A DNA stretch of 64,000 bases from a virus. The notes below the pieces were generated by a model that was not told where the DNA came from, did no database searches, and worked only from the letters and a program-made list of their open reading frames with translations. Shown here one piece after another: positions 49,910 through 53,861 of the stretch. The stretch lies in the UHGV virus genome UHGV-0042229. One strand, written 5' to 3'. Position 1 is the stretch's first letter; each line of letters begins with the position of its first letter. Made by a program: the position numbers and the translations under genes.

Positions 49910-50710
49910 TTAGCGCGTTGCCGCGACAGGTACCAGCACACCAGTATCAAGCAATCGCTTCATCAGCCACTGCTGACCTTTGCCGGTTATACGAGTCGTG
50001 AAAGAAATCCTGCTTCCATTGCTTGTATCGATCACGGTTTCTTTAAGGGTGAAATACCCACGGGATATGTATTCTTGTTTGGGGACGTTCCTGCGTTCAC
50101 CGGTTGCGATCAGAATTCCGTTATCACGCAACCAGGTGAAGAGATAGTTTTGGCCCAGACCGAGCACTTTGGCATAGTTGCCGATTAGAACCCCGCTGGC
50201 GGTAGCAACGCGTTCGGCGAATTCGACTTTAGGTGCATCCATAAGCATTTTTTGTTCCAGCCGTTGCTTTTGCTCTGCCAGGTCGGCAGCCAAACGGAGA
50301 GCTTCAGGGAGACTCTGCGGAATAGCAGGTTGTAATCTTCCGGCTCGATAGTCGATAAATGTCTGGTTTACCTTCAGCCGAAACGCGGGAGAAATCCAAC
50401 CAGCGTACTCCACTGCGAGCAATTCATGGGCAAAAGTGCCGCCGCCACGGCCTTCGAACGAAACTATGCAATTCTGCATAGTTTCTTTTTCAAGCTCTTC
50501 GATGAGCTGTTTAGCTGACAGCGTTCTTAGCCATTGAGCTGGCGCTTTATGGGCACCGAGTCCGCTCGCTCTGTGTAGAGCATTAAGGTTGTAACGGCCA
50601 GCGCGGTCGGTCGTAATTTCAACACCACAAATAACGGGCAGAGTGGTTGAAGGATCGACATTTTGATGAAGGTTTGATATATTCATATCCGCATTGAATG
50701 TTTGTTGCAT
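49910..50710 (-). CDS. kilA: KilA (266 aa): KilA-N domain plus Ant-like C-terminal domain
   Basis: N-terminal KilA-N pattern; C-terminal PQSLPEALRLAADLAEQKQRLE...GNYAKVLGLGQNYLFTWLRDNGIL... related to the Ant C-termini. Confidence 0.85.
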   Translation of the reverse strand: MQQTFNADMNISNLHQNVDPSTTLPVICGVEITTDRAGRYNLNALHRASGLGAHKAPAQWLRTLSAKQLIEELEKETMQNCIVSFEGRGGGTFAHELLAVEYAGWISPAFRLKVNQTFIDYRAGRLQPAIPQSLPEALRLAADLAEQKQRLEQKMLMDAPKVEFAERVATASGVLIGNYAKVLGLGQNYLFTWLRDNGILIATGERRNVPKQEYISRGYFTLKETVIDTSNGSRISFTTRITGKGQQWLMKRLLDTGVLVPVAATR

Positions 50711-50873: not shown

Positions 50874-51917
50874 TTAACCTATTGCTACTGGTTTTAACAA
50901 ACCAGCATCAAGTAGCTTGCGAGTTAACCACTGCTGGCCTTTACCCGTTAATTGGGGCGTCAGCCGTATCTGGTAGCCATTTTCATCATCCAGCACCACT
51001 TCTTTCACCGTGAAATACCCGGCGTTAATGTACTGCTGGCGCGGTACGTTTTTGCGCGCACCAAAAGCCATGAGAATGCCGTTCTGGCGCAACCATGAGA
51101 AAAGGGCGTTTTGCTTAAGTCCAACGACCTTTGCAAAGTTCCCGATCAGGATTCCATTAGCCGCTGATACCCGGTCGGCAAAATCGACTTTAGGGGCTGC
51201 GGCCACCAGCTGTTGTTCCAACTGCATTTTCTGTTCTGCCAACTCGGCAGCCAGGCGTAGAGCGTCTGGTAATGTTTGGGGGATCGATGGGGCAGGGGAG
51301 TTTGCCTGCTGCAATTCTTCCAGTTTGTCGATCAGCGAACGGCGGACTGCTTTTGACTCGCGCGCGGCGACTCGCAGGGCTTGTTTGTAGGTCATGGTTA
51401 TGACAACCATAGGCGTACCGCCACCTGGCGGCACGGTTGCACTTTTTGTGTAACCGTCCTCACCTTCTAATTCGTCGAGTATTTTTTTGATGAATTTGTT
51501 GTTCCGAACCTCTGGTTCCCCACATAACTTACGCGCTTCATTGACCATCTTTAACAGCGTCTGGCTGTCGATTGTGTCTCCAGTGTTGGAGATAACATTC
51601 ACAGCTGGTGATGGCGTAGCTGAAGCAACAGATGCTGGTTTTTTAACATTCAAATTATTACTGGTCATTCTATGTGCCTCCTTTCTCATTTCTGCTGCCA
51701 CCGTTGCGTAACGTAGACGTCCTTGTTCAATCAAATAATCCCTGATCTCGGCTATCAGTAGCCTGTTGATCACAGCCTTATCTGTTCGGGTATAAAAACG
51801 TCTGGTTATCATGAAATAGTTGGCAATTGCGCCGGGGATCTCCCGTGTCGGCATACAGGCAGTATGCAGTGCGATCGCTTCGGCTATGTCATTACGGGTG
51901 ACGAGAGGTTTTTTCAT
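50874..51917 (-). CDS. ant: Antirepressor Ant (347 aa) of immI
   Basis: ATGA overlap with icd; C-terminal Ant domain; order c4-icd-ant-kilA-repL as in P1. Confidence 0.8.
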   Translation of the reverse strand: MKKPLVTRNDIAEAIALHTACMPTREIPGAIANYFMITRRFYTRTDKAVINRLLIAEIRDYLIEQGRLRYATVAAEMRKEAHRMTSNNLNVKKPASVASATPSPAVNVISNTGDTIDSQTLLKMVNEARKLCGEPEVRNNKFIKKILDELEGEDGYTKSATVPPGGGTPMVVITMTYKQALRVAARESKAVRRSLIDKLEELQQANSPAPSIPQTLPDALRLAAELAEQKMQLEQQLVAAAPKVDFADRVSAANGILIGNFAKVVGLKQNALFSWLRQNGILMAFGARKNVPRQQYINAGYFTVKEVVLDDENGYQIRLTPQLTGKGQQWLTRKLLDAGLLKPVAIG

Positions 51918-52135
51918 AAAACCCCCTGAACGTCGGAAGAGAAGGGGAGGTTCCAGTAACTAAGTGAATTGCGCGAGTTAGTTGAAAAACGGGCAGTAAA
52001 AATGCAGGGGCCATCAGGCAATTGAGAGCGTGCTTCGTCTTCTGTTGCTGCGATGACGAAGTGATAGTGGTGTTTTTTGCAGGAATAGAAACGCCAGATG
52101 AATTCTTGGCGTGCGCAAGGATTGGCATTAACCAT
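51914..52135 (-). CDS. icd: Icd (73 aa)
   Basis: MVNANPCARQEFIWRFYSCKKHHYHFVIAATEDEARSQLPDGPCIFTARFSTNSRNSLSYWNLPFSSDVQGVL; 73 codons, coupled to ant. Confidence 0.8.
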   Translation of the reverse strand: MVNANPCARQEFIWRFYSCKKHHYHFVIAATEDEARSQLPDGPCIFTARFSTNSRNSLSYWNLPFSSDVQGVL

Positions 52136-52194
52136 AGTTACGGCCTCACAATCAGGTTTAACAACCTGCTACCCGCTGCTAAACAGGTGGCAGG

Positions 52195-52300
52195 ACGTGA
52201 CGGGGTTAGCAGACTGGCGATTGTGAAACCAGCAGGCCGAAGCCTCCCCATCACGCCCCACCATAATTTGGGCGTAACGCAGTTTTACGGACACAAAAAT
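52195..52300 (-). ncRNA. c4: Putative c4 antisense RNA region (approximate bounds)
   Basis: Between operator and icd; direct repeats gctgctaaac at 52175-52184 and 52344-52353 (candidate targets) flank a segment whose transcript carries the complementary ctgctaac (plus strand gttagcag, 52205-52212). Exact ends not determined. Confidence 0.4.
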
Positions 52301-52449: not shown

Positions 52450-52466
52450 AAATTTATTAGAGCAGA
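52450..52466 (-). promoter_or_regulatory. C1 operator-like site (Op51-like) upstream of immI
   Basis: aaatttattagagcaga, 15/17 to reverse-complement consensus. Confidence 0.6.
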
Positions 52467-52747
52467 TTAGTGTCGTGCAATAGATATATTATTTGTGATG
52501 AAAAATAATGCAGAGGGATATTGTAACTTTAAGATGGATATCAATAGTCGATACATAAATTAAGTTAGCAATAAACTATTAACTTAAGAAATAATGCAGA
52601 TGGTGAACTTGTCTCTGACTTTTCAGCTATACACAATAAGTTAGGGATAGCTTATAAAAAGTTGATTAATTGATATAAGTCAATGGGAGTATTCTTGTTT
52701 ACTTTCCGTTCTCGTGGTAACTTCTCGCCGGTTTTTGTTTTTCTGGG

Positions 52748-53269
52748 ATGATTCTTATGTCTAAAAAGTATACTTTATGCGCTCTTGTTGTATCTGCAAT
52801 TCTTCTTTCTGGGTGTCAATCTAGCGGTGCTGATTATGCTGCCGATGTTTATGATACCGCTCAATTGAATTCGAAGCAGGAAACAAAGACAGTCAATATT
52901 ATCTCTGTGCTTCCAGCTAAAGTGAAAGTTGATAATAAAGCTAATAAAGAAGCGGCACAGACATTTGGTGCGGTACTGGGAGCTGTTGCTGGGGGCGTTG
53001 CCGGTTATAATGTTAAAGGCACATCGACACTGGGTGCTGTAGCTGGCGGTACTGGTGGTGCGGCTCTTGGTGCAGCGGCTGGTTCTTTGGTTAGTGATAA
53101 AACAATTGTTGAAGGTGTTTCACTGACTTATAAAGAAGGAACTAAGGTGTTCACTTCAACTCAAGTTGGTAAAGCATGCCAGTTTACAACGGGGCTTGCT
53201 GTGCTTATTTCAACTAAAGATAATGAAACTCGAATTCAGCCAAATGCTACTTGTCCAGAAAAGAAATAA
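52748..53269 (+). CDS. Outer-membrane lipoprotein with glycine-zipper (173 aa)
   Basis: Signal peptide with lipobox LLSGC; Gly-zipper GAVLGAVAGGVAGY...LGAVAGGTGGAALGAAAGSL; AT-rich codon usage. Confidence 0.65.
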   Translation: MILMSKKYTLCALVVSAILLSGCQSSGADYAADVYDTAQLNSKQETKTVNIISVLPAKVKVDNKANKEAAQTFGAVLGAVAGGVAGYNVKGTSTLGAVAGGTGGAALGAAAGSLVSDKTIVEGVSLTYKEGTKVFTSTQVGKACQFTTGLAVLISTKDNETRIQPNATCPEKK

Positions 53270-53272
53270 TTT

Positions 53273-53812
53273 ATGAATAAAATTATTTTATTTCTAATCT
53301 TTTCTACGTTTAGTGTAGGCACTGCCTTGGCTAACTCGTTGCAAAGTCAAATTGCTGCTATTGCTCAAGCGGAAAATGAAGGGCGAGCTAAAGAGCAGCA
53401 AGCTGAGGATGCCAGAAAAGAACTTATTCGCCAACAAGCACAAGCTGAACGTATTAGAAGAGAAAAAGCAGCATCTGCCGCTGCTGCACGCGAAAAACAG
53501 CGTGTTGCTGCAGAAAATGAACGTAGAGCGAAACGAGAAGCCGAGCTAGCAAATGACAAGAAGCGAGATCAAGCTTATGAGGATGAGCTTCGCAAGCTGC
53601 AACTCGAAAGCATGAAACTCGAACTGCAAGCAAAAGCGGCTCGTGTCCAGCGAGAAAACGATTTTATAGAGCAGGAGTTGAAGGAGAGAGCAGCTAAGAC
53701 AGATGTAATTCAGTCTGAGGCTGATGCAAATAGAAATATTTCTACAGGAAGTAAAGATTTACTGCAAAGCGAAGGAAAAGCTAGAGAGAAGAAAGCTAGC
53801 AGTTGGTGGTAG
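53273..53812 (+). CDS. Secreted charged coiled-coil protein (179 aa)
   Basis: N-terminal signal peptide MNKIILFLIFSTFSVGTALA; remainder K/R/E/A-rich coiled coil. Confidence 0.6.
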   Translation: MNKIILFLIFSTFSVGTALANSLQSQIAAIAQAENEGRAKEQQAEDARKELIRQQAQAERIRREKAASAAAAREKQRVAAENERRAKREAELANDKKRDQAYEDELRKLQLESMKLELQAKAARVQRENDFIEQELKERAAKTDVIQSEADANRNISTGSKDLLQSEGKAREKKASSWW

Positions 53813-53838
53813 TAATCGCTACGATTGCGAGCATACTG

Positions 53839-53861
53839 TCACAAATGACAACTCGTAGAAT
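53839..53861 (+). promoter_or_regulatory. Late-promoter-like motif upstream of the tail/baseplate operon
   Basis: tcacaaatgac-aactcg-TAGAAT; -10 is 32 nt upstream of the ATG at 53893 and overlaps one arm of a 12-bp inverted repeat. Confidence 0.5.

Follow-up and report, generated by a model that had tools for sequence, protein, structure and literature searches.

The 64,000-nucleotide sequence UHGV-0042229 (hereafter the window) is, by sequence comparison, a P7-type P1-like phage-plasmid. Next to its immI operon lies an AT-rich cassette of two genes, the counterparts of upf50.5 and upf50.0 of phage P7. We propose that it is a diverged copy of the Escherichia coli core operon yfgH-yfgI, placed in the slot which phage P1 uses for its sim genes; on the homology described below this identification appears close to certain. 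The first gene specifies a predicted glycine-zipper lipoprotein resembling SlyB, and the second an exported helical protein of Pfam family DUF5384. As to function, we lean, with moderate confidence and guided by the homologues, towards an accessory pair (a moron) which would fortify the outer membrane or sequester outer membrane proteins (OMPs) in the lysogen.

The gene pair and its relation to yfgH-yfgI

The two open reading frames (ORFs) are co-directional on the + strand with a spacing of 3 nt. The first codes for 170 amino acids from the start codon at 52757, the P7 annotation using an alternative start at 52748, and the second for 179 amino acids; both products are 100% identical to their P7 counterparts, Upf50.5 and Upf50.0. 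In the GenBank record of P7 (AF503408) these are described as 'outer membrane lipoprotein of unknown function' and 'membrane protein of unknown function', respectively, and their similarity to E. coli proteins is already noted. A literature search found no paper mentioning upf50.5, upf50.0 or DUF5384.

The N-terminus of the first product, MSKKYTLCALVVSAILLSG/CQ, contains the lipobox LLSG/C with the invariant cysteine and, at position +2, Gln rather than Asp, which predicts a lipoprotein of the outer membrane. It is followed by a glycine/alanine zipper, GAVLGAVAGGVAG...GAVAGGTGGAALGAAAG (residues 66–112), with 18 small-xxx-small motifs, and two invariant cysteines (positions 141 and 166) lie in the C-terminal beta region. 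Alignment of 38 members of the YfgH family revealed 31 invariant columns. The earlier note on this DNA, made from the sequence alone, had called the product a glycine-zipper lipoprotein; the lipobox and the zipper segment bear this out, with a match to the Pfam glycine-zipper 2TM domain (PF05433) that is sub-threshold (18.3 bits; gathering score 24.2).

SlyB (PDB accession numbers 7ojf and 7ojg) is a PhoPQ-regulated glycine-zipper lipoprotein which forms rings of approximately 11–13 subunits around OMPs and lipid in the outer membrane. It is the sole significant solved relative of the cassette lipoprotein, matching it end to end in a phmmer search of PDB sequences (E-value 6.4e-5) and more strongly with the 38-sequence family profile (E-value 1.4e-9). 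AlphaFold2 produced a low-confidence monomer (predicted local distance difference test score, pLDDT, 55) with strand (42–59), helix (61–85), helix (92–111) and strand (115–160) regions, which is the beta-helix-helix-beta topology of SlyB. Using Foldseek, 7ojf_A was the only significant match to this model (E-value 8.6e-6; template modelling, TM, scores 0.53/0.63; 138 columns on a 138-residue target). The two proteins differ in that their identity is only about 25% and that slyB is not accompanied by a DUF5384 partner gene.

The second product matches Pfam family PF17358 (DUF5384) over profile positions 4–145 of 145 (E-value 3e-43; 147.8 bits against a cut-off of 25). Its signal peptide ends ALA/NS, leaving a mature protein of 159 residues, 41% of them D, E, K or R and 19% Ala, which would measure about 24 nm if wholly helical. 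AlphaFold2 predicts a single continuous helix for residues 4–178 (pLDDT 87.5), and a profile search against PDB sequences yielded no solved relative of DUF5384. In the alignment the N-terminal half is variable, conservation being seen in the C-terminal half, whose motif reads DKKRDQxYEDELR...TDVIQSEADANRN...GKA...WW/WF. The earlier note had described a secreted coiled-coil protein: the signal peptide and the continuous helix agree with this, and the coiled coil does not follow, since the hydrophobic periodicity of 3.5 residues lacks significance, 404 of 2000 shuffles having attained it. From its composition, the mature protein may be a single charged helix; a coiled coil is possible and unproven. 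The lipobox in one product and the Sec signal peptide in the other are in keeping with the same note's view that both are targeted to the envelope.

A blastn survey of complete E. coli genomes located a locus annotated yfgH/yfgI, approximately 69% identical in nucleotide sequence, in 5420 of 5426 genomes, and the P7-type cassette itself at ≥99% in 165 records. The chromosomal context is ppk-ppx-yfgF-yfgG-yfgH-yfgI-guaA-guaB. At the amino acid level the identity to the E. coli proteins is 67% for the lipoprotein (170 residues, compared with L003) and 48% for the DUF5384 protein; against P0094, a cluster of 3349 E. coli chromosomal members, the lipoprotein shows 68% identity over 98% of the query (E-value 1.2e-63). 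Gene order, full-length homology, lipobox, glycine zipper, cysteine pair, the C-terminal DUF5384 motif and an AT-rich upstream region are all shared with E. coli YfgH-YfgI. The phage copy differs in its location in the sim slot of a phage-plasmid, in divergence of the hairpin-turn region (YNVKGTSTLG) and of the N-terminal half of the helical protein, and in its lower G+C content at third codon positions (GC3), which is 0.28 for the cassette genes versus 0.46 for E. coli yfgHI. Its closest relatives, at 83–88% identity, include a genomic-island copy (L009) and an allele in the same slot of other P1-like elements (84%); chromosomal copies in Kluyvera, Pantoea, Citrobacter and Xenorhabdus reach 71–80% over the best aligned segment. 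Because GC3 differs in this way and closer relatives are found elsewhere, the sequences indicate that the donor was not E. coli itself and that the pair is no recent capture from that species.

Among 80 genomes sampled from the Enterobacterales, Pasteurellaceae, Pseudomonas, Vibrio, Aeromonadales and a few others, 78 carry a DUF5384 ORF directly downstream of the yfgH-like gene. The chromosomal site of the pair varies: it is yfgF-guaA in Escherichia and Citrobacter and plsY-tsaD in Xenorhabdus, and most other lineages have the pair at different places. The two genes are a near-obligate module whose pairing is kept despite its changing position. At the level of sequence homology these comparisons establish that the cassette was acquired horizontally and is an intact operon of two genes, homologous to yfgH-yfgI of bacteria. 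The regulation of the chromosomal pair differs between hosts: the Salmonella Typhi orthologues, srgI-srgL (srgIL), are induced by SdiA together with acyl-homoserine lactone, the pair is missing in S. Typhimurium, and an E. coli yfgHI reporter fusion was not regulated by sdiA (PMC11619404).

Several existing labels are incompatible with these results. In RefSeq and in phrog_1277 the lipoprotein is called a 'DNA methyltransferase', which cannot be reconciled with a lipobox-bearing, glycine-zipper, SlyB-like protein, and the phi456 labels 'minor tail protein' and 'tail tip protein' for the two genes are likewise mis-annotations in view of the lipoprotein. The mislabelled records are NC_050152, NC_031129, NC_042128 and OR339795.

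The sim slot, its junctions and its occupants

A 1.6-kb segment around the cassette is 99.8% identical in nucleotide sequence to phage phi456 and 99.4% identical to P7; its similarity to P1 (94%) is restricted to the first 165 nt. The insert comprises nucleotides 52467–53838, flanked on the left by the C1 operator that belongs to the c4/immI promoter and on the right by the late promoter LPsit, and in the equivalent interval P1 carries simA-simB-simC according to annotation and alignment. On the left (52465/52466) P1 homology stops within the last 2 nt of the 17-bp C1 operator Oc4/Op51, and on the right (53838/53839) the junction falls directly ahead of the ACAAATGAC box of LPsit. The right junction is common to all five alleles compared, namely those of P1, the P7 type and three more fetched from plasmids. 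Since it replaces simABC between fixed junctions, the cassette is cargo rather than backbone, and two regulatory sites delimit its slot. The earlier note had placed an AT-rich two-gene cassette beside a divergent immI, in the position of the P1 sim genes, and treated it as cargo; the ORFs, the base composition and the - strand immI operon are as it described, the junctions are identical to those of simABC, the G+C content is lower than that of the surroundings, and at least four alternative inserts are found in the slot. The sim region has already been published as an AT-rich variable hot spot of P1-like elements (PMC9603915, PMC6906374).

The cassette thus shares with the P1 sim genes its slot, orientation, junctions and character as AT-rich accessory cargo, and SimC is likewise Sec-exported. 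It differs in having two genes instead of three, in that the Sim set includes no lipoprotein, and in that exclusion by Sim has been shown experimentally. Comparison with P1 Sim had been named in the earlier note as a check, and neither product resembles SimC: BLASTP gave best E-values of 0.044 and 5.0 over no more than 30 residues, so these are not clear Sim homologs. The comparison by sequence covered SimC; SimA and SimB have no Pfam family and were not compared directly.

In PLSDB approximately 505 plasmids code for a PmgC at least 95% identical to that of the window. The lipoprotein is present at ≥99% amino acid identity in 167 plasmids, the 84% allele in 20 and SimC in about 140; the cassette is accordingly carried by about one-third of P1-type plasmids (~168 of ~505). 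The 84% allele is followed, still inside the slot, by a 419-amino-acid DUF559/REase_MTES_1575-like protein (L015 4880–6139 and L018 2111–3370, IncY P1-like plasmids), which by its family is possibly a nuclease-type defence gene. In p886Rt_IncY (L019 2257–3442) the slot holds two unrelated proteins of 215 and 158 amino acids, both with Sec signal peptides and neither with a confident family match, and a further allele is a Sim variant.

The ratio of nonsynonymous to synonymous substitutions (dN/dS) relative to the 84% allele is 0.06 for the lipoprotein and 0.04 for the DUF5384 protein, and relative to the genomic-island copy it is 0.075 and 0.096, respectively, with dS >1 in both comparisons. 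Both genes are under purifying selection. By their divergence, the two YfgHI-type alleles are far older than their near-identical flanks, and so they entered the slot separately or through exchange with an outside pool. In addition, comparison of the c4 region (window 52183–52268) with L001, L002, L015, L019, L020 and L103–L123 revealed the identical cassette next to at least three loop variants of the c4 antisense RNA: CACAATCG+GCTAACCCC as in P7, CACAATCG+GTCAACCCT, and CGTAAGTG+GCTAACCCC. It follows that immI specificity and the cargo slot reassort.

Pairs of this type were also found on other mobile elements. A 71%-identical yfgH/DUF5384 pair ends a myovirus-type prophage with lambda-like head and P2-like tail genes, beside a tail-fibre assembly gene. 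This pair and the tail genes occur at two chromosomal sites, some strains having them next to yecD and another within ompW, so the pair travels as cargo of that prophage; the sequences point to independent acquisition by an element unrelated to P1. The 96-kb conjugative-type plasmid pVPSD2016-3 of Vibrio parahaemolyticus bears a 50%-identical pair (L017 5995–7055) between a gene for an outer membrane transport protein and higBA with transfer genes of the type found in integrative and conjugative elements. On pNT1W25-7k, a 7.5-kb mobilizable ColE1-type plasmid (L016 755–3700; see also L025, an Acinetobacter contig), a YfgH-like gene (75% identity) is followed by a truncated DUF5384 gene; the adjoining 421-amino-acid phosphoethanolamine-transferase fragment reaches no MCR model.

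Two further sets of candidate carriers were rejected. In the record of phage TL-2011b (L014, JQ011317, 1–3425) the border has the host order yfgF'-yfgG-yfgH-yfgI, and the IMG/VR contigs with 68–69% identity (L121, L124–L182) all have the pair at contig ends and read in the same way. Rather than phage cargo, they seem to be borders of guaA-integrated prophages that were drawn too far into host DNA.

The upstream region and neighbouring features

The cassette is preceded by 290 bp with 31% G+C, compared with 47.3% for the window, and the only stretch of the 64 kb in which 290-bp segments fall to 32% G+C or less lies here. Both this AT-rich region and the two copies of the dodecamer AAATAATGCAGA within it had been pointed out in the earlier note, and both are present as reported. 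The dodecamer occurs exactly twice in the window, and an exact repeat of 12 or more bases arose in about 1% of Markov-1 simulations of the upstream region; judged by these simulations, the repeat is genuine and somewhat unusual. The 84% sister allele lacks it.

The only sigma-70-like match on the + strand of this region (TAGATA-17-AATAAT) begins 15 nt from the end of the C1 operator and has its -10 hexamer within the first copy of the dodecamer. A second candidate is a 33-nt element which is kept between both YfgHI-type slot alleles in spite of the saturated synonymous sites of their genes, and is situated at -78/-80 from the start codon in these two alleles only. The near-palindrome within it, TTGATATAAGTCAA, was not found at the other loci examined, chromosomal homologues included, except for one chance-like match on a Vibrio plasmid, and a family-wide upstream operator was thus rejected. 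By hand inspection a sigma-E-type promoter around the element is not conserved in the sister allele and was also discarded.

The divergent immI operon (Table 1) also contains the a1/b1 targets of c4 RNA. Scanning the 64 kb with the C1 operator consensus (three mismatches or fewer) gave 14 matches, as fits a P1-type genome; among these are a perfect match at 31526 and a neighbouring site with two mismatches at 31515.

Table 1. Positions of the cassette genes, upstream elements and neighbouring features in the window, and of the prophage-borne pair in other records
Feature	Position	Strand	Basis or remark
kilA	49910-50710	-	immI operon
ant1/2	50874-51917	-	immI operon
icd	51914-52135	-	immI operon
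c4 antisense RNA of immI, divergent neighbour	52183-52268	-	Rfam RF01695, 69.6 bits (gathering score 45); P7 annotation
C1 repressor operator Oc4/Op51, AAATTTATTAGAGCAGA	52450-52466	-	P7 protein_bind feature mapped from L001 3151-3167; 2 mismatches to consensus
AT-rich upstream region, presumed promoter and leader	52467-52756	+	31% G+C, 290 bp; homologous loci examined all AT-rich upstream
Sigma-70-like match, candidate promoter only	52481-52509	+	consensus scan, 9/12 matches
AAATAATGCAGA, copy 1	52503-52514	+	exact repeat search
AAATAATGCAGA, copy 2 (86 bp downstream of copy 1)	52589-52600	+	exact repeat search
Upstream element AATTGATATAAGTCAATGGGAGTATTCTTGTTT with near-palindrome TTGATATAAGTCAA; possible promoter or operator	52668-52700	+	alignment with 84% allele
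Putative YfgH-like, SlyB-like glycine-zipper outer membrane lipoprotein (P7 Upf50.5)	52757-53269	+	homology, lipobox, fold
YfgI-like DUF5384 protein (P7 Upf50.0)	53273-53812	+	Pfam PF17358; Sec signal peptide; conserved C-terminal half
Late promoter LPsit of pmgC/tubA-tub-pmgB-sit operon, backbone	53842-53861	+	P7 and P1 annotation
Prophage-borne yfgH/DUF5384 pair	L005-L008 8001-9071; L102 20005-21075 (NZ_CM147848)		

A possible role in the outer membrane

In E. coli YfgH is found in the outer membrane fraction and is induced by outer membrane stress (bioRxiv 10.64898/2025.12.22.696046). According to the same preprint, deletion of yfgH leads to sensitivity to sodium dodecyl sulphate and ethylenediaminetetraacetic acid (SDS/EDTA), increased permeability and decreased OMP levels, and leaky (mild) overexpression rescues depletion of BamA or LptD. 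The protein co-purifies with BamA, LptD, OmpF/C/A, LamB and TonB-dependent receptors, limits blebbing and shedding of the outer membrane, and preserves OMPs when the cell is stressed; in AlphaFold3 models there are signs of SlyB-like rings. The suppressors of the two systems differ, in that the yfgH deletion phenotype is suppressed by clsA mutations and the slyB phenotype via the Mla pathway (bioRxiv 10.64898/2025.12.22.696046). For YfgI, a deletion mutant is hypersensitive to nalidixic acid, which was read as 'DNA repair' (PMC3536626); we infer that a barrier defect would fit an exported helical protein better.

We envisage that the first product is synthesised as a prolipoprotein which receives its lipid at Cys20 and, having Gln at +2, is sorted by the Lol system to the outer membrane of the lysogen, where, like YfgH and SlyB, it would insert as a glycine-zipper helical hairpin and may form rings enclosing patches of lipid and beta-barrel proteins. 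The second product would be exported by the Sec pathway to form a charged helix of about 24 nm in the periplasm, the conserved C-terminal half of which most likely docks on the lipoprotein; this docking is suggested by the near-obligate gene pairing and the tight translational coupling. Since an AT-rich region of its own precedes the cassette and the late promoter comes only after it, the pair is probably transcribed from that region, outside the late operon, in the plasmid-prophage state. The outcome would be lysogenic conversion of the envelope, with extra or constitutive YfgHI-type nanodomains toughening the outer membrane against detergent, bile and chelator, and with OMPs sequestered. Exclusion of phages or of conjugation, if any, would be a consequence of the same envelope activity. 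The earlier note had offered superinfection exclusion or envelope remodelling as alternatives. In our analysis the latter, including fortification, seems the better grounded, because the pair copies yfgH-yfgI and an outer-membrane-stabilising role of YfgH has experimental support; superinfection exclusion, there an argument from position only, is plausible.

Several points weigh against a fortifying role. Chromosomal yfgHI is present in nearly all E. coli hosts, and simple redundancy does not explain why a 67%-identical second copy is kept. Sim, the best-studied occupant of the slot, is an exclusion function, and this speaks for a role directed at phages. For the function of YfgH the evidence is one December 2025 preprint that is not peer-reviewed and leaves YfgI aside (bioRxiv 10.64898/2025.12.22.696046), and the role of the phage copy is argued from homologues. 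The lipoprotein model is itself of low confidence, and the proposed rings are an extrapolation from SlyB and from the AlphaFold3 models of that preprint. The sigma-70-like match is weak, the number of such sites in the upstream region being no higher than in shuffled sequence, and gives a promoter candidate only.

Alternatively, the cassette may be a dedicated exclusion system which took the place of Sim, its rings or helix blocking adsorption or DNA transit of P1-like or other phages, or conjugative entry in the manner of TraT, either by masking or walling off OMP and lipopolysaccharide (LPS) receptors or by obstructing the periplasmic path. We regard this as less likely than fortification, and as its main rival. 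The cassette occupies exactly the simABC slot, which repeatedly holds envelope-acting cargo, SimC and both p886Rt_IncY products having Sec signal peptides; a second copy persists in hosts that already possess yfgHI, and the unrelated prophage has its independently acquired pair beside its tail-fibre genes. YfgH moreover binds the classical phage receptors OmpA/C/F, LamB and TonB-dependent receptors (bioRxiv 10.64898/2025.12.22.696046), and TraT sets a precedent as a chromosomal outer membrane lipoprotein family which plasmids have co-opted several times for surface exclusion (PMC11733297) and which is reported to block phage adsorption. TraT, known from F-like plasmids for surface exclusion and serum resistance, is like the cassette lipoprotein in being an oligomeric outer membrane lipoprotein with a helical membrane anchor from a chromosomal family co-opted by mobile elements, and there is weak Pfam similarity over residues 56–142; it differs in its length of about 225 amino acids, its extracellular ring and the lack of a partner gene. 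Membership in the TraT family (PF05818) was rejected at 23.1 bits against a cut-off of 31, and the Foldseek match to 9fs5_A is not significant (E-value 0.19, TM 0.23). The Cor (phi80, N15, HK022) and Llp (T5) proteins are also small phage- or prophage-encoded lipoproteins acting at outer membrane receptors, yet they possess neither glycine zipper nor partner protein, and a Cor-type assignment was rejected since the similarity is confined to the signal peptide (phrog_1119, E-value 0.021, residues 7–51). No PADLOC-DB v2 family matched either protein at an E-value of 0.1 or below. The absence of homology to SimC and to these other systems counts against dedicated exclusion, as does the linkage of the cassette to at least three c4 specificity variants, by which it is not tied to one immunity type. 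The receptor of P1 itself is the LPS core and not an OMP, another point in its disfavour.

The exclusion and fortification readings are not mutually exclusive. In a more far-reaching form, P1-like phage-plasmids and at least one unrelated prophage would have co-opted the YfgH-YfgI nanodomain module as a new exclusion device, with rings that wall off OMP/LPS receptor patches and a helix of about 24 nm that obstructs passage of the tail tube or DNA; the Oc4-LPsit interval would then be an exchangeable 'envelope-defence' slot whose occupants (Sim, YfgHI-like pairs and other secreted proteins) are functional analogues. This scheme strikes us as speculative and rather improbable. Of still lower probability is a helper function in the lytic cycle, in which the pair would keep the outer membrane stable during infection; premature lysis could thereby be delayed, lysis from without resisted, or the loss of progeny on shed outer membrane vesicles limited. 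It could draw on the action of YfgH against blebbing and shedding and its preservation of OMPs under stress (bioRxiv 10.64898/2025.12.22.696046), and on the position of the cassette, which immediately precedes the late tail operon, no terminator being predicted between the two. That position is, on the other hand, upstream and not downstream of LPsit, the cassette has an AT-rich upstream region of its own, P1 manages without the pair and carries sim instead, and knockdown by CRISPR interference in P1 classed simA-C as non-essential for lytic growth (PMC10695390). Least of all do we favour a neutral hitch-hiker, chromosomal DNA captured by chance and without a function for which the phage-plasmid is selected. 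The slot is a known hot spot of recombination within AT-rich DNA (PMC9603915, PMC6906374), and the copy on the 7.5-kb plasmid is truncated; set against this, neither ORF is interrupted, both are 100% conserved in many records of P1-like elements, dN/dS is 0.04–0.10 with dS saturated between the slot alleles, two anciently diverged alleles of the pair share one slot, and about a third of P1-type plasmids carry it.

Returning to an envelope-fortifying or OMP-sequestering pair as the preferred explanation, the feature itself is not new, its genes being in GenBank and its slot a published hot spot. New here are the YfgH-YfgI identification with a SlyB-like fold, the near-obligate pairing across the Gammaproteobacteria, purifying selection on both genes, the fixed junctions of the slot, the share of P1-type plasmids with the cassette, the independent acquisition by a prophage, and the corrected labels. 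The near-obligate DUF5384 pairing flags YfgI as the partner left out of the sole functional study of YfgH. Few exclusion systems are known to act at the level of the envelope, and should the pair prove to exclude phages or plasmids as well, they would be joined by one with a new mechanism. Antibiotic resistance in E. coli and Salmonella is carried by many of the P1-type plasmids, and for a pair which databases call 'hypothetical', 'DNA methyltransferase' or 'tail protein' the identification gives a concrete, testable function, namely outer membrane hardening and OMP sequestration. The cassette would thereby link a newly described envelope-stress system to lysogenic conversion.

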